This document shows positions 7,616-64,000 of a stretch of 64,000 bases of DNA, piece after piece. Made by a program: the position numbers and the translations under genes. The notes under the pieces were generated by a model. That model saw nothing but the letters and a program-made list of their open reading frames with translations. It ran no database searches and was not told the origin of the DNA. Each line of letters starts with the position of its first letter. The first letter of the stretch is position 1. Source of the DNA: Gammaproteobacteria bacterium (GTDB taxonomy: Bacteria; Pseudomonadota; Gammaproteobacteria; QQUJ01); assembly GCA_050287605.1 (NCBI GenBank), contig JBNKCG010000081.1:18-64017 (forward strand), read 5' to 3'.

Positions 7616-8284
7616 ATGGGGTGCGCGATGCCAACCAGCGACGAACAGCGACTCGAACTGATAGCGACCATGCGCGCCCTCAACGCCCAGGGCATCAACC
7701 AGGGCAAGTCGGGCAACGGCAGCGTCCGCACCGAAAAGGGCTTCCTGATCACACCGTCGGCGGTGTCCTACGACACCCTGACCCCCGACGATATCGTGGC
7801 CATGAATTTCGACGGAACCTGGACCTGTTCCGCCGGCCGCCGCCCGTCCAGCGAATGGCGTTTTCACCGCGACATCCTGCAGGCCCGTCCCGAGTTCAAC
7901 GCGCTGCTGCACACCCATGGCCGGGCGGTGAGCACGCTGGCCTGTCTGCAGCGTTCGATCCCAGCGTTTCACTACATGGTGGCCATCGCCGGCGGCACCG
8001 ACATCCGCTGCGCCGGCTACGCCACCTTCGGCACCCAGGCCCTCTCGGATCTCGCGCAGGAGGCCCTCGCCGGACGCAAGGCCTGCCTGCTGGCCCATCA
8101 CGGCCTCATCGTGGGCGGTGCCAGCCTCAGCGAGGCCTTTGCCATCGCCGTGGAGGTGGAGCATCTGGCCGAGGTGTACTGGCGCATCCTGCAGATCGGC
8201 GAACCCGAGATTCTGGACGACGAAGAGATGCAGCGCGTACTGGCGCTGTTTCGCGCCGGGTACCAGCACACGGACAAGGGTTGA
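7616..8284 (+). CDS. Class II aldolase/adducin-family protein. Either methylthioribulose-1-phosphate dehydratase (MtnB) or an Ald2-like aldolase.
   Basis: Metal-binding His cluster (LLHTHGRAVSTLA … HHGLIVGG) typical of fuculose-phosphate-aldolase-like enzymes. Confidence 0.7.
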   Translation: MGCAMPTSDEQRLELIATMRALNAQGINQGKSGNGSVRTEKGFLITPSAVSYDTLTPDDIVAMNFDGTWTCSAGRRPSSEWRFHRDILQARPEFNALLHTHGRAVSTLACLQRSIPAFHYMVAIAGGTDIRCAGYATFGTQALSDLAQEALAGRKACLLAHHGLIVGGASLSEAFAIAVEVEHLAEVYWRILQIGEPEILDDEEMQRVLALFRAGYQHTDKG

Positions 8285-22209: not shown

Positions 22210-23262
<1,053 letters not shown>

Positions 23263-23386
23263 CGATACGCGCGCGCAGAATGGGACTCAAGCACCCGCCC
23301 CATCCCCTACGGCACGCCGGCGCAACGGTTGCGGGCCGAATCCGCCACCCTGTATCTTCCCCCTTTCCAAACCCGTTGAGTGCGCT

Positions 23387-24703
23387 ATGGAATCCGTCGA
23401 TACACAGATCAACCCGCACTGGATCATCCCTGTCGAACCCCACGCCACCGCCTGGGAAAATCACTCACTGGTGATGGCCAAGGGCCGCATCGCGGCGATT
23501 GCCCCGCGGGCGGAGATTGAGCAGCGTTACCGGCCGACCACCACCGTGGACCTTCCCGGCCACGCGCTGATTCCGGGCCTGATCAACGCCCACACCCACG
23601 CCGCCATGACCCTGCTACGCGGCTACGCCGACGACCTGCCGCTGATGGAGTGGCTCACCCAGCACATCTGGCCGGCGGAACAGAAGTGGGTCAACGACGA
23701 ATTCGTCCACGACGGCAGCCTCCACGCCATCGCCGAGATGCTGCGCGGCGGGACCACCTGTTTCAACGACATGTACTTCTTTCCCGAGGTAACCGCGCGT
23801 GTGGCGGCCAACGCCGGCATGCGTACCTCGGTGGGGCTGATCCTCATCGACTTTCCCTCCGCCTACGGCAGCGGTATCGACGACTATCTGGAGAAAGGGC
23901 TGGAGCTGCACGACCAATACCGCAACAATCCCCTGATCCGCACCGCCTTCGCCCCCCACGCCCCCTACACCGTCTCCGATGCGCCGCTGGAGCGGGTGCG
24001 GGTACTGGCCGACGAGTTGGAGATACCCGTTCATATCCACGTCCACGAGACCCGCGACGAGGTCGAGCGCAGCGTGGAAGAGCACGGCGTGCGCCCGCTG
24101 ACGCGCCTGCAGCGGCTGGGGCTGGTCTCGCCGGCACTACTCGCCGTGCACATGACCCAGCTCGACGAATCCGAGATCGAGATGCTGGCCACCGCCAACG
24201 CCCACGTTCTCCATTGCCCGGAGTCCAACCTCAAGCTGGCCAGCGGCTTCTGTCCGGTGCAGCGACTGCTGGACGCCGGGGTCAACGTGGCACTGGGCAC
24301 CGACGGCAGTTCCAGCAACGACGATCTCGACATGCTGGGCGAAATGCGCAGCGCCGCGCTGCTGGCCAAGGCGGTGGCCAACGACGCCAGCGCCCTGCCG
24401 GCCGCCACCGCACTGCGCATGGCCACCCTCAACGGCGCCAGGGCACTGGGGCTGGATCAGGAGATCGGTTCGCTGGAGGTGGGCAAGGCCGCCGACCTGG
24501 TGGCGGTGGATCTCGATGCCATCGAGACCCAACCGCTATACAATCCCATCTCGCAGCTGGTCTACTCCGCCAACCGCAACGGCGTCACCGACGTCTGGAT
24601 CGCCGGGCGCCACGTGTTGAAGGAGCGCCAGCTGACCACCATCGACGAAGAATCCGTGTTGGCGCAGAGCCGCCAGTGGGCCGAGCGCATCCGCAACGGT
24701 TGA
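23387..24703 (+). CDS. mtaD: 5-methylthioadenosine/S-adenosylhomocysteine deaminase (amidohydrolase, TRZ/ATZ family)
   Basis: Metal-binding HTH (GLINAHTHAAM) and HIHVHE motifs. About 439 aa. Confidence 0.8.
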   Translation: MESVDTQINPHWIIPVEPHATAWENHSLVMAKGRIAAIAPRAEIEQRYRPTTTVDLPGHALIPGLINAHTHAAMTLLRGYADDLPLMEWLTQHIWPAEQKWVNDEFVHDGSLHAIAEMLRGGTTCFNDMYFFPEVTARVAANAGMRTSVGLILIDFPSAYGSGIDDYLEKGLELHDQYRNNPLIRTAFAPHAPYTVSDAPLERVRVLADELEIPVHIHVHETRDEVERSVEEHGVRPLTRLQRLGLVSPALLAVHMTQLDESEIEMLATANAHVLHCPESNLKLASGFCPVQRLLDAGVNVALGTDGSSSNDDLDMLGEMRSAALLAKAVANDASALPAATALRMATLNGARALGLDQEIGSLEVGKAADLVAVDLDAIETQPLYNPISQLVYSANRNGVTDVWIAGRHVLKERQLTTIDEESVLAQSRQWAERIRNG

Positions 24704-24713
24704 GAACCCCTTC

Positions 24714-25424
24714 ATGAACACTGCCCACAACCTCGATCCCGAAGAGCTGCGCAAGTTCGACGAGCTGGCCGCACGCTGGTGGGACCCCAAGGGTGAATTC
24801 GCCCCGCTGCACGCCATGAATCCCGCGCGGCTCGCCTTCATCGCCCAGCGCGCTCCGCTGCAGGGCTTGAGCGTGGCAGACATCGGCTGCGGCGGCGGCA
24901 TCCTCGCCGAAGCGATGGCCAAGGCGGGCGCACAGGTCACCGGTATCGACATGGCCGAAGCGGGGCTGGCCGCGGCGCGCGCCCACGCCGACCAGGGCGG
25001 CCTGGCGATCGACTACCGGGCATCCACCGCCGAGACCTTCGCCGCCGAACAGCCCGGCGCCTTCGACGCGGTCACCTGCATGGAACTGTTGGAGCATGTG
25101 CCGGATCCCGGTTCGCTGGTCCAGGCGTGCCGCGATCTGGTGCGTCCCGGCGGTTGGGTCTTCTTCTCCACCGTCAACCGCAACCCCAAGGCCTACCTGT
25201 TCGCCATCATCGGCGCCGAATACATCGCGCGCATGCTGCCCAAGGGCACGCACCACTATGAGCGCTTCATCCGTCCGGCGGAGCTCGATGCCTGGGCACG
25301 GCGTGCAGGCCTGATCACCCGTGCCGTCGAGGGCATCCGCTTCAGCCCGCTGAGCGCCGCATTCGAGCTGGGCGGTCGCCCGGACATCAACTACGTCGTA
25401 GCGTGCCAGCGCGACGATGACTGA
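24714..25424 (+). CDS. ubiG: Bifunctional 3-demethylubiquinol 3-O-methyltransferase / 2-polyprenyl-6-hydroxyphenol methylase
   Basis: SAM-binding motif DIGCGGGILAE. Typical UbiG length and N-terminus. Confidence 0.9.
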   Translation: MNTAHNLDPEELRKFDELAARWWDPKGEFAPLHAMNPARLAFIAQRAPLQGLSVADIGCGGGILAEAMAKAGAQVTGIDMAEAGLAAARAHADQGGLAIDYRASTAETFAAEQPGAFDAVTCMELLEHVPDPGSLVQACRDLVRPGGWVFFSTVNRNPKAYLFAIIGAEYIARMLPKGTHHYERFIRPAELDAWARRAGLITRAVEGIRFSPLSAAFELGGRPDINYVVACQRDDD

Positions 25425-26142
25425 ACCGGTCCCGCCAGCCGACGCCGTACCAGGCCTCTCCCCCACCGATCCGGCGCCGCGCGCCATCGACACCGTGCTG
25501 TTCGATCTCGACGGCACTCTGGCGGACACCGCTCCCGACATGGGAAACGCCATGAACGAAGTGTTGCGCGAATGGGGGGAGCCGCCGCGGGCGCTGGAAG
25601 CGCTGCGTCCCTACACCTCCCACGGCAGCCTGGGGCTGATCCGCTTCGCCTTCGGTTTCGGCCCGGAGCACGAACAGTTTCAGGCAATCCGCCAGCGGTT
25701 TCTCGACCTCTACCAGACCCGCCTGATGGTAGACACCCGGCTTTTTCCCGGCATGGAGGAGCTCCTGAGACGACTGGAAAGTGCGGGCCTGCGCTGGGGG
25801 GTAGTCACCAACAAGCCCGGCTGGCTGACCAACCCGCTGATGCAGCGCCTGGGGCTGGACACGCGCGCGTCCTGCATCGTCAGCGGCGACACCGCCGCGC
25901 GGCCCAAGCCGGAACCCGATCCGCTGCACCATGCGTGCGGCGTGCTCGCCTGCGATGCCGGACAATGCCTTTACGTCGGCGACGCCGAACGCGACATCAT
26001 CGCCGGCAACCGCGCCGGCATGACCACCCTGGTCGCCCTGTTCGGCTACCTGCACGCCGACGACCGCCCCGAACAGTGGGGCGCCGCCGGGATGATCGAC
26101 ACCCCGCTCGACGTGCTCGCCTGGTTGGATACCGGTGCCTGA
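25417..26142 (+). CDS. HAD-superfamily phosphatase (phosphoglycolate phosphatase/MupP-like)
   Basis: HAD motif I (DLDGTL), motif II (VTNK) and motif III (GDAERD). Overlaps ubiG by 8 nt, as in Pseudomonas ubiG-mupP. Confidence 0.8.
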   Translation: MTEPVPPADAVPGLSPTDPAPRAIDTVLFDLDGTLADTAPDMGNAMNEVLREWGEPPRALEALRPYTSHGSLGLIRFAFGFGPEHEQFQAIRQRFLDLYQTRLMVDTRLFPGMEELLRRLESAGLRWGVVTNKPGWLTNPLMQRLGLDTRASCIVSGDTAARPKPEPDPLHHACGVLACDAGQCLYVGDAERDIIAGNRAGMTTLVALFGYLHADDRPEQWGAAGMIDTPLDVLAWLDTGA

Positions 26143-54695: not shown

Positions 54696-55070
54696 TCACG
54701 TTTGCTCCAGTTCGTAGCTCTCCATCAATTGGCGCATGACCTCACCCGCGCGTTGCTCCGTCAGCAGCTCGAGGGCCACGTGAGCATCGAGGTAAGCCAA
54801 CAGAAAATTGACCGCATAGCGATCGGCGCGAGACGGGTCTTGCTGTATGGCAGCCAGGCAGCGACCGAAACTGTAGTGGGCAATCTTACGTAGCTGATCC
54901 TTATCCTTGATACCGCGGTTGCGCACACAGAACAGCGGGGCATATTTGTAGAGATGTTGTTTGGCGTCGCTCGTCATCTCCCCATGTTCGGCGGCCGCCA
55001 GCCGCCATGCCATCGTCAACGCGTCGTAAGCTTCCGCCGCCCATTGTTTGTTTTTGCGCGGTCTCCTCAT
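54696..55070 (-). CDS. Hypothetical protein
   Basis: About 125-aa ORF with plausible codon usage. No recognisable motif. Confidence 0.35.
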   Translation of the reverse strand: MRRPRKNKQWAAEAYDALTMAWRLAAAEHGEMTSDAKQHLYKYAPLFCVRNRGIKDKDQLRKIAHYSFGRCLAAIQQDPSRADRYAVNFLLAYLDAHVALELLTEQRAGEVMRQLMESYELEQT

Positions 55071-55077
55071 CCCGTCC

Positions 55078-56250
55078 CTATCCGGCAAGATGCCGTTTCA
55101 ACCGCGCCACACCCTCCTGCAATTGCGCCAGTGAAGTGGTATAGGCGAAGCGCACATGTTGCGCGGCTCGGTAGTCTCCAAAATCGATACCGGGTGTAAT
55201 TGCCACGCCGGTCGCCTCCAACACCTCCCACGCAAAACGATAACTATCGGAGGTGAAGCGACTGCAATCCGCGTATATGTAGAACGCTCCCTGCGGTATC
55301 AAAGGTATTCCGAATCCCAAATCGCGCAGTGCAGGCAGCAGATAGTCGCGACGTTCACGGAAGGCCTCTCTGCGCGCTTCAAGTATCGCCCGGGTTTCTG
55401 GTGTAAATGCCGCCAAAGCGGCGTACTGCGCGGGTGTCGAGGCCGAGATGAAGATGTTCTGTGCGAGTTTTTCCACTTCGCGCACGTATGCCTGCGGTGC
55501 AACCAACCAGCCGATGCGCCAACCGGTCATACCGAAGTACTTGGAAAAGCTGTTGACCACAAAAGCCTCGTCGGTCAACGCCAGCACGGTAGTGGTATCA
55601 CCTTCGTAGATCAATCCATGGTAGATCTCGTCGACGATCAAGTGCCCCCCGCGCGCCGCCACCGCGTCGACGACGCTTTGCATGTCGCTACGCTCCACCA
55701 GCGTACCGGTGGGATTGGACGGCGATGCCAGTAGCGCAGCCACCGAGTTCTCGTCCCAGTGCTGGCGAATCAACTCCGCCGTCAACTGATACCGGCTCTC
55801 TGCACTGACAGCGATCGGGGTCGCGGCACCCTCCACGAGGCGTACGAAATGGCGGTTGCAGGGGTAGCCGGGATCGGCCATCAACACCCGTTGGCCAGGA
55901 TCCACGAGAACGCCGCACACCAGTTGCAAGGCGCCAGATGAGCCAGGGGTGACGATGATGCGCTCCGGCGCCACCTCCACCGCATAGCGTTCGTGGTAGA
56001 GGCGCGCGATCGCCGTGCGCAATTCACCGATGCCGACGGCGGGTGTGTAGTGGGTCTTGCCCTCGGCCAACGCTCGCTGACCGGCCGCAACAACCGGATC
56101 GGGCGTCGTGAAGTCGGGCTCACCGACCTCCATGTGGATGACGGATCGGCCGGCTGCTTCCATCTGCAACGCCCGTGCGAGCAGATCCATGACATGGAAG
56201 GGTTGAATCTCGCCCATGCGACGGGCGATGCGGGTGATTTGTTCGCTCAT
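55078..56250 (-). CDS. PLP-dependent aminotransferase class I/II (AlaC/AspC-like)
   Basis: SFSKYFGMTGWRIGW Lys motif. Start MSEQITRIA at 56250. Confidence 0.85.
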   Translation of the reverse strand: MSEQITRIARRMGEIQPFHVMDLLARALQMEAAGRSVIHMEVGEPDFTTPDPVVAAGQRALAEGKTHYTPAVGIGELRTAIARLYHERYAVEVAPERIIVTPGSSGALQLVCGVLVDPGQRVLMADPGYPCNRHFVRLVEGAATPIAVSAESRYQLTAELIRQHWDENSVAALLASPSNPTGTLVERSDMQSVVDAVAARGGHLIVDEIYHGLIYEGDTTTVLALTDEAFVVNSFSKYFGMTGWRIGWLVAPQAYVREVEKLAQNIFISASTPAQYAALAAFTPETRAILEARREAFRERRDYLLPALRDLGFGIPLIPQGAFYIYADCSRFTSDSYRFAWEVLEATGVAITPGIDFGDYRAAQHVRFAYTTSLAQLQEGVARLKRHLAG

Positions 56251-57707: not shown

Positions 57708-58520
57708 TCAACGTTTCGGCAACAGACTCTGGGGATCAACCGGCTCCCCATTGCGCCGAATCTCGAAATGAAGCATGGGACGGGTAGCTTCCGTATCACC
57801 CATTTCCGCAATCAGCTGGCCTGCGCGTAACGTCTCACCTTCTTTCACTAACAGACGTCTGTTGTGTCCGTACGCACTCAGGTAGACGCTGTTGTGTTTG
57901 ACGATGATAAGCTGACCGTAACCGCGAAGTCCACTCCCGCTGTAGACCACCCGACCGGGTGCCGCAGCCCGCACCGGCTGCCCTGTCGACCCGCCGATAT
58001 CTACACCTTTGCGGCCTGGATCACTACGCGAGAAGGTTTTTAGTAGCGCGCCATCCGTCGGCCATTGCCACTCCAACCTGACCGTACCAATCGTAGGTGT
58101 TTTCCGCGCCGGCCGCGGCTGACGTACGGGTGCGGCACTCGACGCACGTCCATTACCGGATGGTGGGGAACTGCTGCGCGGTACGTGAACGGTGCGACTC
58201 TCGGTGCTCGCCTGCGGCGTGATGCGCAGACGTTGATCCGGATAGATGCGATACGGCCATCCGATGCCGTTCCAGCGCGCCAATTCACGGTAGTCGCGTC
58301 CAACCTGGAATGCGATGGAGTAGAGCGTATCTCCGCGGTCAACCACATAGTAGGCAACCGCACCCTCTTCCACCATCACACCGCTGGCGTGATCGACGTC
58401 CCAACTGATCATCCTGCCGCAGCCGACGTTGACCACGGCCGATGCCAACAGCAGCAACGCCGCGATCAGCCGGTTTTGATCACCACATAGACGACGACGG
58501 TAAGCAGCAGCAGTACCCAT
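57708..58520 (-). CDS. nlpD: Murein hydrolase activator NlpD (LysM plus M23 peptidase domain lipoprotein)
   Basis: Lipobox (VNVGC). LysM domain (YVVDRGDTLYSIA). C-terminal M23-like domain. Confidence 0.85.
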   Translation of the reverse strand: MGTAAAYRRRLCGDQNRLIAALLLLASAVVNVGCGRMISWDVDHASGVMVEEGAVAYYVVDRGDTLYSIAFQVGRDYRELARWNGIGWPYRIYPDQRLRITPQASTESRTVHVPRSSSPPSGNGRASSAAPVRQPRPARKTPTIGTVRLEWQWPTDGALLKTFSRSDPGRKGVDIGGSTGQPVRAAAPGRVVYSGSGLRGYGQLIIVKHNSVYLSAYGHNRRLLVKEGETLRAGQLIAEMGDTEATRPMLHFEIRRNGEPVDPQSLLPKR

Positions 58521-59047
58521 CCCACCCGGTCAATGTAGTTGCGCAACAGGTTGCGCATGCGTTCGCCGCCCCAACGCATCAACAAGGCGACCAGAAAGAA
58601 GCGGGCCCCGCGGCCGAGGAACGATGCCAGGACAAACGGCAAGAAACTCATGGCGATCGCACCCGCCGCGATGGTGAACACCTTGTAGGGGATGGGCGAA
58701 AAACCCGCCACCAACACCGCCCAGAATCCCCATGTCGCAAACCAAGCCTGCACCTGCTGGTACTTGGACGCGTACCCCAGCTGTTCCACCCAAGGTGCAA
58801 CGACGTCGAACGCCAGCAGACCGATGAGATAGCCGAACGCACCACCCACTACCGAAGCCAAGGTCGTTATCAACGCATAACGCAGAGCGCGATCGGGCTT
58901 TGCCAGCGCCATGGGCGCCAGCATTACGTCGGGGGGAATGGGAAAAAACGACGACTCGGAAAAACTGAGGCCGGTAAGATACCAGGGCGCGTGGGGATGC
59001 TCCGACCAGCGCATCACCCGTTCGTAGAGTGCGGAAAAGATGCGCAT
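58466..59047 (-). CDS. YqaA/DedA-type (SNARE-associated-like) membrane protein
   Basis: 193 aa with four or five TM helices. Sits in the pcm to nlpD position that a conserved small membrane protein occupies in Pseudomonas. Confidence 0.6.
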   Translation of the reverse strand: MRIFSALYERVMRWSEHPHAPWYLTGLSFSESSFFPIPPDVMLAPMALAKPDRALRYALITTLASVVGGAFGYLIGLLAFDVVAPWVEQLGYASKYQQVQAWFATWGFWAVLVAGFSPIPYKVFTIAAGAIAMSFLPFVLASFLGRGARFFLVALLMRWGGERMRNLLRNYIDRVGWVLLLLTVVVYVVIKTG

Positions 59048-59712
59048 CAGCGACGGCCTCCCAGCAGCGGAACGAAGTTGGCGCCTTCAAGAATCTCCCG
59101 TTCGTAGCCCTCATCAGTGCGTGTTACTCGTATCAGGTTCTGTTCCCTCCCGCAACCGACGGGGATCACCAGACACCCCCCGACCGCCAGCTGATCGAGC
59201 AGTGCGGCGGGGATCTCTTCCGGCGCGGCAGCCACCAGAACGGCGTCGAACGGCGCATGCTGCGGCCATCCCAAAAAACCATCGGCGTGGCGCAGCTGTA
59301 CATTGTAGAGCTTGAGTTCACGCATCCGGTCCCTGGCCCGCGTTACCAGTGGCGATAACCGTTCCACCGCGAAGACCTGTTTGACCAGCTGTGCCAGTAT
59401 CGCGCTCTGATACCCCGAGCCAGCCCCAATCTCCAACACCTTCTGCGGCACCTCGCGCTCCAGCAGCGCTTCGGTCATGCGGGCGACGATGTAGGGCTGC
59501 GACAGGGTCTGGCCGAAACCGATGGGCAGCGCCGTATCTTCGTAGGCGCGGCTGGCCAGCGCCTCGTCCACGAAGATATGCCGCGGTGTATTGCGCACCG
59601 CCGCCAGTACGCGCATGTCCTTGATGCCCGCCTCGCGCAGGCGCTCGATCAAGCGATCGCGCGTGCGCTGCGAGGTCATGCCGATACCGCGGTGGGTGGT
59701 ATCCAGGGTCAT
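59047..59712 (-). CDS. pcm: Protein-L-isoaspartate O-methyltransferase
   Basis: SAM motif [13 protein letters not shown] and Pcm signature LSQPYIVA. Confidence 0.85.
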
Positions 59713-60464
59713 GGATGGGGCACACCACCCAGCCAATCGGCCAACGGCTCCAGGGAGTCGTAACGCGTGAGATCGATCTGCAGCGGCGTCACGGAAACGT
59801 AACCCTGACGAACGGCATGGAAATCAGTGCCGGGACCGGCATCCTGCTCCGGACCCGCCGGTCCCACCCAGTAGATGGTACGCCCGCGGGGGTCTTTGTC
59901 CTTGATCACCGGTTCCGCCTTGTGGCGGTGGCCCAGACGCGTCGCCTGATAGCCGCGCAACGCGTCCCAGGGCAGATCCGGTACATTGACGTTGAGGATG
60001 GTATCCGCCGGCAGCGGAGCGGTGCGCAGTCGCTGTAGGAGATCCAACACCACTTTTCCGGCCGTTTCGTAGTGGTTAGGTTCGTGCTCGGTCATGGAGA
60101 CGGCGATGGCGGGCAGCCCGAGAAATCGCCCCTCCATGGCTGCCGCGACGGTACCCGAATAGAGGATGTCGTCACCGAGATTGGCGCCGGAGTTGATCCC
60201 GGAGACCACCATGTCCGGCTCCTCCTCCAGCAACCCGGTGATAGCCAGGTGGACGCAATCGGTCGGGGTACCGTCGACCCTGACGAAACCGTTCTCCATG
60301 GTCTCCGCACGCAGTGGACGCACCAAGGTCAGCGAATTGCTGGCACCGCTGCGATCGCGCTCCGGTGCCACCACCGTCACCTCGGCGACGCGCTCCAGCA
60401 TGCGCGCCAGGCAGACCAACCCCGGCGCCTGGTAGCCGTCATCGTTGCTCAACAGGATTTTCAT
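59709..60464 (-). CDS. surE: 5'/3'-nucleotidase SurE
   Basis: [12 protein letters not shown]-terminus, highly diagnostic. Confidence 0.9.
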
Positions 60465-60612
60465 AAAGCGGCGACATCATCTCGGGAAGGCAAGGCGCGC
60501 TAACTATACCGGAATCCCTGGACACCTCCCACTGGCTGCACTCTCCGCGACTGGTTCCCCGCCCATGGCCGCACCGCGGACCGAACGGTTAGACTTGGTG
60601 TCGAGGTCAACC

Positions 60613-61158
60613 ATGAGCAAACGCGACGACATCGACGAGGAGGAACGCGAGCTGTTTCGCGACCGGCTGCGCGACATCCGCCCGCTACGCCACGACAAAG
60701 TGGCGCTGCGCCCACCGAAACCGCCCGCCGAACCGCGACAGACGCGCCTCGACGAGGCCGAGGTGCTGCACACGCTGCGCCAGGCCCCGCTGGACCTGGT
60801 CGAACACCGCACCGGCGACGAGGTGGTGTACGCCCAGGCCGGGATCGATCACGCAACCCTGCGCCGCCTGCGACGCGGACAGTACAGCGTGGAGGCCAGC
60901 CTGGACCTGCACGGGATGCGCGAGCGCGAGGCTGCAGACGCCCTGGGGCAGTTCCTGGTCCACAGCCAACTCCAAGGGCGACGTTGCCTGCGCATCGTGC
61001 ACGGCAAGGGCAACCGATCGCCCGGCAGGGAACCGGTACTGCTGCGCATGGTGCACCGCCGCTTGCGCCGTCACGGCGAGGTGCTGGCGTTTTGCTCGGC
61101 CCCGCCCCGCGACGGGGGCATCGGCGCGGTTTACGTACTGTTGCGTAAGAAGCGGTGA
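60613..61158 (+). CDS. Smr (MutS2-type small) domain protein
   Basis: C-terminal Smr domain (LDLHGMRE…LRIVHGKG). Confidence 0.75.
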   Translation: MSKRDDIDEEERELFRDRLRDIRPLRHDKVALRPPKPPAEPRQTRLDEAEVLHTLRQAPLDLVEHRTGDEVVYAQAGIDHATLRRLRRGQYSVEASLDLHGMREREAADALGQFLVHSQLQGRRCLRIVHGKGNRSPGREPVLLRMVHRRLRRHGEVLAFCSAPPRDGGIGAVYVLLRKKR

Positions 61159-61179
61159 AGCAGCCGTTACCGAGGTCGC

Positions 61180-62343
61180 TCAGCGCGCCCGGGCCGAACG
61201 CATCCCCTGGCCACCTGGAGAGGCAAACGCCGCATCGATACGGGCCATGAAGCGCTGCGTCGCCACGCGCAGATCCGCATCCTCGCGCAACAGCGCCGCC
61301 CCGATGAGGTAGACGGTGTCGGCTCCGTATTCTGCGGCCATCTCGGGGATGCGATCCAACGTCATGCCCCCGGCCGGCGCCGGGAGTGCTGCCTTGAGGT
61401 GATCCAACGGGCGCCGCAGCGCGGCGTTGATACCGTGGCACTCCTGCGCCGTAAATGCGAAGCGGCCGCCGAAATTGGGGTAGATAGAGACATCGCAGCC
61501 GATCAGCCGAAACAGCGTGCCCAGCAGCACGGCCGGCGTCATACCGTGGCGCCGGTCGTGAAAATGTGTCCCCGAAAAGGCCGGGTGACCGACGAAGACC
61601 AGGTCGTAGCGTTCGGCAAAATAGCGCACCGTGTCCAGGCCGAGCAGGAAGGGGGCCACCAGCACCCCCTTGACGCCCAATTCCACCGCGCGTTGCAGTT
61701 GCGCTTCGAGGGCTTCGTAGGGGCCGCTGATGTTGGGAAAGTAGAGCGTGGTATGACCGCTGCGCTGGTTGGCACGGGCCACGGCCTCCTGGCAGCGTTC
61801 GACCCGCTCGCTGAAGCCGCAGAAGGGTTGATCGGCTAGGCCGTGATCGTCCTTGACCAGGTCGCACGCGCCCGCCGCAACCACTTCGGCCATGGCCGCC
61901 AGTTCGCTGGCTGAGCGGCCCATGGGCTTGAGGGCGGTCATCGCCAGCGCACGCCCCGCGACGCCGGTCAGTGCGCGTATCCCGGCAACGCCGAAATTGG
62001 GGCCGCGCCACCGTGCCAGCAGTGCGGGGGGCAGCTTCAGGTCAACGATGCGGATATTGTTCTTGAGGGAGATGTTGCCGTAGAGCAGATTCAGCAGCTG
62101 CGGCAGTGCGTAAGCGGTGGTATCGGCATGGTAGGCGATGACCGCCCGGTAGCTGTCGGGCGGGTTGGTCAGCGCCGTCAGCTCCAGCGCCTCGCCCACG
62201 ATGCGCTCGCGGATCGATGGGGAGCCGATCAGATCCTCCGCCATCTCCACCGTCTGCTCCAGCGCGATGGCGCGGCAGAAGTCATCGGCACTCTGCCCCT
62301 GCGGCGGGGTCAGTTGATAGGTGATGTGTAGCCTGTCCGGCAT
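61180..62343 (-). CDS. RuBisCO-like protein (form IV RLP, short DeepYkr-like type)
   Basis: 387 aa. RuBisCO large-subunit fold motifs, including the carbamylated-Lys region DLVKDDHGL and GxDFxKDDE-like context. Start MPDRLHITYQ at 62343. Confidence 0.8.
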   Translation of the reverse strand: MPDRLHITYQLTPPQGQSADDFCRAIALEQTVEMAEDLIGSPSIRERIVGEALELTALTNPPDSYRAVIAYHADTTAYALPQLLNLLYGNISLKNNIRIVDLKLPPALLARWRGPNFGVAGIRALTGVAGRALAMTALKPMGRSASELAAMAEVVAAGACDLVKDDHGLADQPFCGFSERVERCQEAVARANQRSGHTTLYFPNISGPYEALEAQLQRAVELGVKGVLVAPFLLGLDTVRYFAERYDLVFVGHPAFSGTHFHDRRHGMTPAVLLGTLFRLIGCDVSIYPNFGGRFAFTAQECHGINAALRRPLDHLKAALPAPAGGMTLDRIPEMAAEYGADTVYLIGAALLREDADLRVATQRFMARIDAAFASPGGQGMRSARAR

Positions 62344-62399
62344 GCAGGGTTTCCGCGCGGGTCGACAAGCGCCCCAGTATAGCGCAACCGTCCCGCCAC

Positions 62400-63440
62400 T
62401 CAGGCGGGCCCGTAGTCCACGATCTCCCGCACCACTACCGTCGCGAAACTGCCGCTGGGAAGCGTGAACGCCAATTCCAGCGTATCGCCGTCGCGGGCCC
62501 ACTGCAGATCGCCGACGCGCACCCGCAAGGCGCGTCGCTCCTGCTCCAGGCCTGCGCGTTCCAACCCGGCGGTCAGATCGCCGTTGTACTGCGCGATACG
62601 CTGCTCGCACAGTGCGGCTTCGCCGCCCGCCATGGACGTGCCGCGTCCCCACAGCGGACCGGTGGGATGGATCTCCAGGCGCTGGATGCGCCCGCGCAGC
62701 TCGTCGTCCGGCATCTCCGTAGCGAACACCGCACGCCGCGCGTCGAGGTTCATGACGTCGCCCGCCAGCGCACGGTTCCAGCTACCCGCCGACACCCGCT
62801 CCGCCAGCACGGCATTGAAGATCCAAGCCCGCGCCGCAGAGAGATAGATACCGCGCAGTTTGCGGTCGCGCACCCGCAGCGTCCCGCCGAACAGGGCGCG
62901 GGCCTGAGCCAGGTTGTCGCCGTCGTGGCCGAAACGCTGTTCGCCGAAGTAATTGGGCACGCCCGCGCCGCGCACCTGCTCCAGGCGTTCGTCCAGTCCG
63001 CCGCCGTCTCCGTCGATCCCCCGCACGCGCAGTCGAAAGCGGTTTCCCGCCGCCGCGCCGGGCCGCAGCTTACGGTTGTGGCGAGCGCTCTCCAGCACTT
63101 CGATGGATTCGGATCCGACGGCGCTCCAATCGGGCTCGGGTTTACCCGCCAGCCCCACGGAGAACCACTGGCTGGTCACAGCGTGGCGGTCTTTGAGCCC
63201 GGCGTAGCCCACGTCGCGCTCCGCCACGCCGGCCACGCGGGCCAGGCGCCGCGCCACCCACAGCGTGTTCTCGCCGCGCTTGCGGATCTTCACCAGAACG
63301 TGCTCGCCGCCGCCCGACGGTTGGAAGGGAAGGCACTCGTCGACCTGGAAGTCTTCCGGCTGTTCGCGCAGCCGCCCGCGCGCCGTAGGCCCGCCCCAGG
63401 CGTACGGGTAGGGTGCCGTCTCCGCCTTCGGAACCGACAT
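62400..63440 (-). CDS. truD: tRNA pseudouridine(13) synthase
   Basis: TruD N-terminus (…PEDFQVDE…GEH…) and catalytic GLKDRHA motif. Confidence 0.85.
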   Translation of the reverse strand: MSVPKAETAPYPYAWGGPTARGRLREQPEDFQVDECLPFQPSGGGEHVLVKIRKRGENTLWVARRLARVAGVAERDVGYAGLKDRHAVTSQWFSVGLAGKPEPDWSAVGSESIEVLESARHNRKLRPGAAAGNRFRLRVRGIDGDGGGLDERLEQVRGAGVPNYFGEQRFGHDGDNLAQARALFGGTLRVRDRKLRGIYLSAARAWIFNAVLAERVSAGSWNRALAGDVMNLDARRAVFATEMPDDELRGRIQRLEIHPTGPLWGRGTSMAGGEAALCEQRIAQYNGDLTAGLERAGLEQERRALRVRVGDLQWARDGDTLELAFTLPSGSFATVVVREIVDYGPA

Positions 63441-63443
63441 GCG

Positions 63444-63923
63444 CTATCGGGCGACCAGCAAAACTACCGCGTGCGCCGCGATGCCCTCGCCGCGCCCGGC
63501 GAACCCCATCCCCTCGGTGGTGGTCGCCTTGATATTGACGGCATCCCCGGAGAGGCCGAGATCGGCCGCCAGGTTCTCCTGCATGGCGGCGATGTGGGGG
63601 GCGAGCCGCGGTGCCTGCGCGATCACGGTGGCGTCCACGTTGACCGGCCGGTAGCCGCGCTGCGTCACCAGGCTGAGCACCCGCGCCAGCAGTTCGCGGC
63701 TGGCGATGCCGCGGTAGGCGGGGTCGGTGTCGGGGAAATGGCGACCGATGTCGCCCAGCGCCACGGCGCCCAACAGCGCGTCGCACACGGCGTGGACGAG
63801 CACGTCACCGTCAGAATGCGCCACCAGGGTGCGTTCGTGAGCGATGGCCACGCCCCCCAGCGTCACATGGTCGCCCGGTCCGAAGCGGTGGGCGTCGTAG
63901 CCGTGTCCGATACGCATGCTCAT
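63444..63923 (-). CDS. ispF: 2-C-methyl-D-erythritol 2,4-cyclodiphosphate synthase
   Basis: [12 protein letters not shown]…HSDGDV motifs. Confidence 0.9.
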
Positions 63924-64000
63924 GCCTGCTCCTGCTGGCGCAGATAGAAACCCGCCAGCGCCAGATCTTCGGGGCGGGTCACCTTGATGTTGTCGCCATG
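63920..64000 (-). CDS. ispD: 2-C-methyl-D-erythritol 4-phosphate cytidylyltransferase, 3' end only (5' part lies outside the window)
   Basis: The C-terminal peptide [25 protein letters not shown] matches the IspD C-terminus. ATGA overlap with ispF. Confidence 0.7.

Follow-up and report, generated by a model that had tools for sequence, protein, structure and literature searches.

A RuBisCO-like protein gene apart from its usual cupin partner in the truD-surE gap of an uncultured gammaproteobacterium

The MTA-isoprenoid shunt (MTA, 5'-methylthioadenosine) has been published for Rhodospirillum rubrum and Rhodopseudomonas palustris (PMC5893883, PMC4958253), both of which run it alongside the dihydroxyacetone phosphate (DHAP) shunt (PMC5893883). 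In R. rubrum, the Deep-Ykr RuBisCO-like protein (RLP) Rru_A1998 acts as the isomerase and Rru_A2000 is the 1-methylthioxylulose-5-phosphate sulfurylase (PMC4958253). A role in the shunt has been shown genetically for the R. palustris pair RPA2169/RPA2170 (PMC5893883), and RLP-cupin pairs were reported from Nitrococcus and Halorhodospira by North et al. (PMC4958253). Here we describe an RLP gene on contig JBNKCG010000081.1 of an uncultured gammaproteobacterium (assembly GCA_050287605.1). The window, that is, the whole stretch of DNA analysed, makes up 64 kb of this 69.6-kb contig, and the remaining 5.6 kb were covered through an identical contig (L001). The gene is found between truD and surE, behind ispD and ispF, with no cupin gene beside it, and its predicted product is a candidate isomerase of the MTA-isoprenoid shunt.

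The RLP gene and its surroundings, from the RLP outward, are as follows.

61180-62343, minus strand: RLP gene, 387 aa with an ATG start (Pfam RuBisCO_large 6.5e-19, RuBisCO_large_N 9e-05).
60613-61158, plus strand: Smr-domain gene, 181 aa (Pfam Smr 1.3e-25).
62400-63440, minus strand: truD, tRNA pseudouridine(13) synthase (NF002153, 468 bits, cut-off 413).
63444-63923, minus strand: ispF, 2-C-methyl-D-erythritol 2,4-cyclodiphosphate synthase (Pfam YgbB match on the identical contig L001).
Just past the window end, at 4997-5707 of L001: ispD (Pfam IspD on the identical contig).
59709-60464, minus strand: surE, 5'/3'-nucleotidase (NF001489, 407 bits, cut-off 295), the downstream flank of the extra segment.
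Beyond surE, minus strand: pcm, a VTT/DedA-family membrane gene, nlpD and rpoS (from the open reading frame (ORF) map and family searches).

The RLP and Smr genes are convergent, with their stop codons 21 bp apart, and truD lies directly upstream of the RLP gene on the same strand across a 56-bp gap. The corresponding locus of Escherichia coli K-12 reads ftsB-ispD-ispF-truD-surE-pcm-nlpD-rpoS, with truD and surE overlapping and nothing between them; because of this overlap, the RLP and Smr genes are counted as extra genes. A preliminary description of this DNA, made from the letters alone, had already placed an RLP gene and a convergent Smr gene between truD and surE, and the ORF map, the family searches and the E. 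coli comparison all bear this out. A protein identical to the RLP (P0001) is also on record in GCA_050288205.1. The window's GyrA is 78% identical to the GyrA of Thiohalobacter and Thiogranum, and the host is therefore taken to be an uncultured member of the Gammaproteobacteria close to the Thiohalobacter group of sulfur oxidisers.

By its sequence, the protein falls within form IV of the RuBisCO large-subunit superfamily and is judged not to be a carboxylase. In a search of the Protein Data Bank (PDB), its best match among solved structures was the 378-aa RLP 3QFW (2e-72, 247 bits, 40% identity), followed by the MtnW enolases (149-124 bits, 32.5% identity), form III enzymes (~129 bits), the Photo-type RLPs 1YKW (Chlorobium-type, 95 bits) and 2QYG (R. 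palustris RLP2, 87 bits), and 3NWR (73 bits); forms I and II of RuBisCO scored at most 71 bits. We take 3QFW to be the R. palustris DeepYkr protein. The highest-scoring NCBIfam model for the RLP was an MtnW model, NF007095, at 198 bits (cut-off 409); the second MtnW model, TIGR03332, gave 151 bits (cut-off 514), so that both fell well short of MtnW membership. The structure 3QFW has been cited as that of an RLP (PMC13454268).

Matches in the protein database comprise a small clade without a fused domain, with 60-81% identity to the RLP and all from uncultured Gammaproteobacteria or Pseudomonadota, and beyond this clade hundreds of homologues at 46-56% identity. The closest relatives outside the clade are RLP-cupin forms at 50-56% identity, and the RLP is ~54% identical to RLPs that are either fused to a cupin or directly followed by one. 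One relative carries the depositor's name 5-methylthioribulose-1-phosphate isomerase, and fused homologues are labelled S-methyl-5-thioribulose 1-phosphate isomerase by the Joint Genome Institute (JGI). A scan of a genome collection with the RLP as single query returned two distant loci at 44-46% identity. An alignment and tree were built from the best 120 protein-database matches, consisting of 14 clade members and 106 others. With MtnW as the root of the neighbour-joining tree, 59 of 60 bootstraps recovered the query clade and P0026 as one monophyletic group, which lay among cupin-fused forms; 3QFW was basal to all 120 homologues (50 of 60 bootstraps), the ingroup holding both 3QFW and the query clade. 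The PDB ranking, with 3QFW first at 247 bits, and the tree thus support an assignment to the short DeepYkr type, as the preliminary description had proposed, rather than to the Photo, NonPhoto or YkrW types or to forms I-III, the separation from Photo and NonPhoto being drawn from the PDB scores.

The residues that are conserved across the family are nearly all present. The KDDH motif reported earlier for this 387-aa protein lies at residues 164-167, and the query clade retains 79 of the 81 columns whose conservation among the other 106 homologues reaches 90% or more, including N90, K139, K164-D-D-H167, H253-P254, R294 and A324-G-G326. With residue numbering transferred from an alignment to MtnW and from the RuBisCO and MtnW literature, the RuBisCO-equivalent residues N123, K175, K201-D202-D203, H294, G380-G381 and G403 are conserved, and the substitutions are E204 to H, R295 to P, K177 to M, S379 to A and probably K334 to R. 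No variation in these active-site-equivalent residues is seen across the 14 clade members, the 106 other homologues and 3QFW, save for the G404-equivalent, which together with P35 makes up the two deviating columns. Such conservation argues that the catalytic apparatus of the family is intact, and the loss of active-site residues, which would have spoken against the earlier proposal, was not found. A bona fide RuBisCO was rejected, as residues needed for carboxylation are replaced; a pseudogene was likewise rejected, as the family-conserved residues are kept. The position of the catalytic Lys98 of MtnW (the N123-equivalent) is occupied by Asn in the RLP, and the E204-equivalent, Glu in MtnW, is His. 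Because of the Asn at the Lys98 position, the RLP is judged not to be an MtnW enolase.

The sequence family itself is closely associated with a cupin. In 83 of the best 120 homologues, a C-terminal cupin_2 domain is fused to the RLP, and the profile of this domain matches PDB entry 3JZV (Rru_A2000) at 1.4e-27 together with two sister structures, with unrelated cupins at 44 bits or less. The fusion to the Rru_A2000 family therefore ties the sequence family to the MTA-isoprenoid shunt. When metagenomes were scanned with the clade alignment, 80 loci with 43-65% identity were retrieved, and in 70 of them the sequence continues downstream of the RLP gene for 600 bp or more. At these 70 loci, the cupin was fused in 24, encoded by the next ORF on the same strand in 41 and missing in five, so that RLP and cupin are linked at 65 of 70 loci (93%), and one of the five exceptions is the query clade. 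The other four cupin-less loci (L040, L054, L060 and L081) share no common alternative partner by Pfam searches of their neighbours, which are an MFS transporter, a glycosyltransferase, an inositol monophosphatase, a DUF4388 protein or nothing. A cupin is also missing near two further unfused homologues, of which P0047 (L012 8001-9155, on a 5.6-Mb contig) is 52% identical to the query and has all of the family residues. It is flanked by a TRAP transporter and an AP_endonuc_2 gene and by a LarA_N/SDR/6PGD-like set, in a cluster that includes a sugar-phosphate-isomerase-like gene and dehydrogenases, with no cupin within 8 kb.

The typical metagenomic DeepYkr-type RLP (P0014-P0120; L015-L092) is a ~525-aa fusion with the RLP N-terminal and the cupin C-terminal, or else an overlapping gene pair. 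Sources include Nitrospirota, Ca. Magnetobacteria, Chloroflexota, Acidobacteriota and Chitinispirillaceae. We found no paper describing the RLP-cupin fusion.

The placement of the RLP gene between truD and surE is itself conserved. Exact-protein look-ups gave the order pyrG-kdsA-eno-ftsB-ispD-ispF-truD-RLP-Smr (opposite strand)-surE-pcm-VTT-nlpD-rpoS-aminotransferase in the relatives, and the arrangement ispD-ispF-truD, zero to two genes, RLP-Smr-surE is common to six lineages with RLPs that are 55-100% identical. Identity to the window copy is 77% in L005 and L006, 67% in L003, 65% in L007 and L014 and 55% in L011, and no lineage shows a broken reading frame. Across four relatives, identity to the window falls from 75 through 67 and 64 to 56% for the RLP, with corresponding values of 64, 57, 59 and 56% for TruD, 68, 61, 64 and 57% for IspD and 71, 60, 57 and 56% for Smr. 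Between positions 56000 and 64000 of the window, GC content climbs steadily from 57-60% at rpoS-nlpD to 70-71% at truD-ispF, and both the RLP gene (66.5%) and the Smr gene (69.6%) fit this local gradient; the GC content at third codon positions (GC3) of the RLP gene, 0.81, is inside its neighbours' range of 0.61-0.88. As RLP identity falls in step with that of TruD, IspD and Smr and the codon GC is typical, the gene is judged to be old and vertically inherited, and by these comparisons it has been in the truD-surE gap since before the sampled lineages diverged. A recent horizontal insertion was rejected on the same two grounds. The two genes that had been called inserted are thus extra relative to E. 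coli, but they are ancient and do not mark a recent event.

The adjacency to genes of the methylerythritol phosphate (MEP) pathway, also noted earlier, is real but is confined to this one lineage. At the 79 other family loci, all from metagenomes, no truD, surE, ispD, ispF, Smr, mtnA or deaminase gene was found within 10 kb of the RLP gene; the adjacency therefore arose once, which makes it weak evidence for functional coupling. Given that DXP (1-deoxy-D-xylulose 5-phosphate) is the end product of the shunt, the position beside MEP genes is suggestive, although it stems from a single event and the gap accepts unrelated genes. In two relatives, the segment that separates truD from the RLP gene (L003 8159-9906 and L011 2414-3517) encodes a dCache-HAMP protein of 367/368 aa in which no output domain could be recognised, and in L003 it holds a further 188-aa ORF with a weak DUF8082 match only. 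The truD-surE gap is a variable spot in the query lineage. We found no paper describing an RLP gene in this position.

Smr adjoins the RLP gene in all six related lineages and at none of the other 79 family loci. Its Smr domain is clear, and its scores are below the equivalog cut-offs for SmrA (120.5 bits, cut-off 180) and SmrB (88 bits, cut-off 128), with full-length PDB matches to YdaL (3QD7, 56 bits) and SmrB (7QGR, 54 bits). It is an SmrA/SmrB-like protein, a constant neighbour in this lineage that is probably functionally unrelated to the RLP; nothing beyond position was found to connect the two.

Scans of the whole window for Rfam families and tRNAs gave no matches, hence no riboswitch upstream of the RLP gene, and a promoter and terminator scan of 59600-63999 gave no promoter-like sites and no more terminator-like sites than expected by chance. 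The operon structure around the RLP gene is accordingly proposed from gene spacing only.

Further along the locus, the VTT/DedA gene (58466-59047, minus strand) lies between pcm and nlpD and overlaps the called nlpD start by ~55 bp; it is kept in all relatives, and the E. coli locus is without it. Directly downstream of rpoS are a pyridoxal phosphate-dependent aminotransferase gene (55078-56250, minus strand; NF006514, 638 bits) and then a conserved ORF of ~124 aa with no Pfam match (54696-55088, minus strand), both syntenic in all relatives, with an additional HAD hydrolase gene between rpoS and the aminotransferase gene in L003.

Elsewhere in the window, other genes of possible relevance to MTA metabolism are present. 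The preliminary description had listed mtnA, an MTA deaminase and a class II aldolase, with no obvious MtnC or MtnD, and the three genes were recovered.

22210-23253, minus strand: mtnA, 5-methylthioribose-1-phosphate isomerase (TIGR00512, 461 bits, cut-off 279).
23390-24703, plus strand: TRZ/ATZ-family amidohydrolase (NF006549, 725 bits, cut-off 540).
7616-8284, plus strand: stand-alone class II aldolase of FucA/DrdA type, below every NCBIfam cut-off.

The amidohydrolase scores below the cut-offs of the models for 5'-deoxyadenosine deaminase and for MTA/S-adenosylhomocysteine deaminase, and is a probable MTA or 5'-deoxyadenosine deaminase. In the region 22210-26142 it is arranged divergently from mtnA, with gyrA-serC-pheA-hisC on one side and ubiG and a HAD phosphatase gene (gph) on the other. 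We take this arrangement to resemble that of Pseudomonas aeruginosa at about PA3168/PA3169-PA3172, where the amidohydrolase is an MTA deaminase and where the canonical methionine-salvage pathway is encoded elsewhere; the presence of the mtnA-deaminase pair therefore says nothing about MtnBCD. The pair lies 37 kb from the RLP gene, beside gyrA. None of MtnB, MtnC and MtnD was recognised among the translated ORFs of the window, selected ORFs having been run against the family libraries.

The aldolase scored 173 bits to E. coli FucA, 152 to 6BTD from Bacillus thuringiensis, which we take to be the 5-deoxyribulose-1-phosphate aldolase DrdA, and 43 to the MtnB-like 2IRP. On these scores an assignment as the MtnB dehydratase was rejected, and the class II aldolase is placed with the FucA/DrdA type. 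It is a possible DHAP-shunt Ald2-like aldolase for 5-methylthioribulose 1-phosphate or 5-deoxyribulose 1-phosphate, a role that by sequence is inseparable from that of a fuculose-phosphate aldolase. The gene has no fucose genes nearby and follows cytochrome b561-like and dihaem cytochrome c-like genes, which were assigned by eye.

The DeepYkr grouping, the cupin-linked relatives and the kept conserved columns together make an isomerase of the MTA-isoprenoid shunt the most likely function of the RLP. In this pathway, MTA, a by-product of the use of S-adenosylmethionine (SAM), would be converted to 5-methylthioribose 1-phosphate by deamination and/or phosphorolysis, and MtnA, for which the window has a gene, would convert this to 5-methylthio-D-ribulose 1-phosphate (MTRu-1P). 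The RLP would then carry out the first committed step of the shunt, from MTRu-1P to MTXu-5P (1-methylthio-D-xylulose 5-phosphate), and a cupin methylsulfurylase, encoded at an unlinked site, would release DXP, the entry metabolite of the MEP pathway, and methanethiol from MTXu-5P. We accordingly predict the RLP to be 5-methylthioribulose-1-phosphate 1,3-isomerase (EC 5.3.3.23) with its cupin unlinked, a prediction in which we place about half of our confidence. Expression of the gene might also be coupled with that of ispD, ispF and truD.

Several observations weigh against this assignment. A hidden Markov model (HMM) of the 83 fused domains detected no Rru_A2000-family cupin (E<1) in the window or in the rest of the 69.6-kb contig, and the same HMM gave no match in the 10-kb flanks of the relatives (L002-L008, L011 and L014). 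Among the best 120 of 1849 matches in a protein search for the cupin, none was on the contigs known for the query clade. With the cupin absent from the contig and from the flanks of the relatives, the pathway is not shown to be complete. The non-canonical route hinted at earlier is the MTA-isoprenoid shunt, which was already published. The 64-kb window encodes MtnA and the deaminase-family enzyme, and none of its ORFs was recognised as an MTA/methylthioinosine phosphorylase or a kinase. At the G404-equivalent, 11 of 14 clade members have Ser or Ala and 103 of 106 other homologues have Gly, the RLP shares only ~40% identity with the alphaproteobacterial branch that has been studied by experiment, and the sugar-acid-like cluster around P0047 indicates that the RLP family may not be strictly isofunctional.

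The last two of these points would also fit an RLP that uses the shared scaffold to isomerise or enolise a different keto-sugar phosphate, with its position neutral in a permissive truD-surE gap. RLPs are functionally diverse, NCBIfam listing both enolase and decarboxylase RLPs, the unfused P0047 sits in a carbohydrate-type cluster, the gap also accepts the dCache-HAMP gene and the 188-aa ORF in relatives, and no methionine-salvage or isoprenoid gene lies beside the RLP at the other 79 family loci. We nevertheless consider another substrate unlikely, at perhaps half the weight given to the shunt isomerase, as the clade is nested among cupin-linked forms, keeps nearly all of the conserved residues and shows no alternative conserved partner, its sole constant neighbour being the oppositely oriented gene for an Smr endonuclease. 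If the RLP gene had come in by recent transfer or were in decay, with no current function, this would account for its being extra relative to the E. coli locus and missing its usual partner, but the intact frames, the tracking of TruD and IspD identity, the conserved residues and the typical GC3 of 0.81 leave this reading hardly credible.

The missing cupin could also be rationalised, together with the position behind ispD-ispF, if the RLP worked independently of a cupin and converted 5-deoxy-D-ribulose 1-phosphate, formed from 5'-deoxyadenosine by a deaminase, a phosphorylase and MtnA, directly to DXP. This chemistry is proposed by analogy with the published conversion of MTRu-1P to MTXu-5P. 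None of the six lineages has the cupin locally, against linkage at 93% of loci in the rest of the family, the same-strand placement after ispD-ispF-truD is conserved, and the deaminase family includes 5'-deoxyadenosine deaminases. In addition, MtnA and Ald2 are documented to accept 5-deoxy analogues (PMC10986504). The sequence gives no sign of such a change of specificity, only 2 of 81 conserved columns differing, the adjacency to ispDF arose once, and we found no paper proposing that an RLP acts on 5-deoxyribulose 1-phosphate. A cupin encoded at an unlinked site is the simpler reading, and such cases are known: Ca. Thiosymbion oneisti (GCA_900092655.1, L095 2491-2922) has a stand-alone Rru_A2000-family cupin that scores 174 bits against the profile and is flanked by ABC permeases and by ppiD-hupB-lon-clpX, with no RLP within 8 kb. 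On balance, we view the direct conversion as improbable.

The pathway and the enzyme name were already known, and what is new here, the placement behind ispD-ispF-truD and the separation from the cupin, is modest. If the usual function holds, the locus would provide independent genomic-context support for a link between the salvage of SAM by-products and isoprenoid synthesis, and it indicates that an RLP-cupin pair that is fused or adjacent at ~93% of sampled loci can be split. Were the cupin-independent conversion true, with the RLP acting within an ispD-ispF-truD-RLP unit, it would amount to a one-enzyme, sulfur-free salvage from the radical-SAM waste product 5'-deoxyadenosine into the MEP pathway, with bearing on the disposal of radical-SAM by-products and on the engineering of Dxs-independent isoprenoid production.

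Compared with known systems, the RLP is most like R. rubrum Rru_A1998 and R. palustris RLP1, sharing with them the short length of ~380 aa, the KDDH motif and the same active-site-equivalent residues. Unlike these proteins, whose cupin gene is adjacent or one gene removed (PMC4958253, PMC5893883), it has none beside it; it is ~40% identical to them and sits between truD and surE behind ispD-ispF. The RLP-cupin fusions and pairs of Nitrospirota, Chloroflexota, Acidobacteriota and others share the conserved columns with it (79 of 81), but have the cupin at the C-terminus or as the next gene, where the query RLP has the convergent Smr gene. With MtnW/YkrW, the 2,3-diketo-5-methylthiopentyl-1-phosphate enolase of Bacillus and Geobacillus, the RLP has in common the fold and the positions of the carbamylated Lys and the Asp residues, and it differs in its 32.5% identity, its 198 bits against a cut-off of 409, the Asn at the Lys98 position and the His in place of Glu. 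As in the DHAP shunt (MtnP or MtnK, MtnA and Ald2), the window has mtnA and a FucA/DrdA-like aldolase, although this aldolase is 14 kb from mtnA and below all family cut-offs. Finally, the ftsB-ispD-ispF-truD-surE-pcm-nlpD-rpoS locus of enterobacteria and pseudomonads has the same genes in the same order and on the same strand as the query. The query differs in an additional 1.9 kb, holding two genes, that separates truD from surE, and in a VTT/DedA gene that separates pcm from nlpD.

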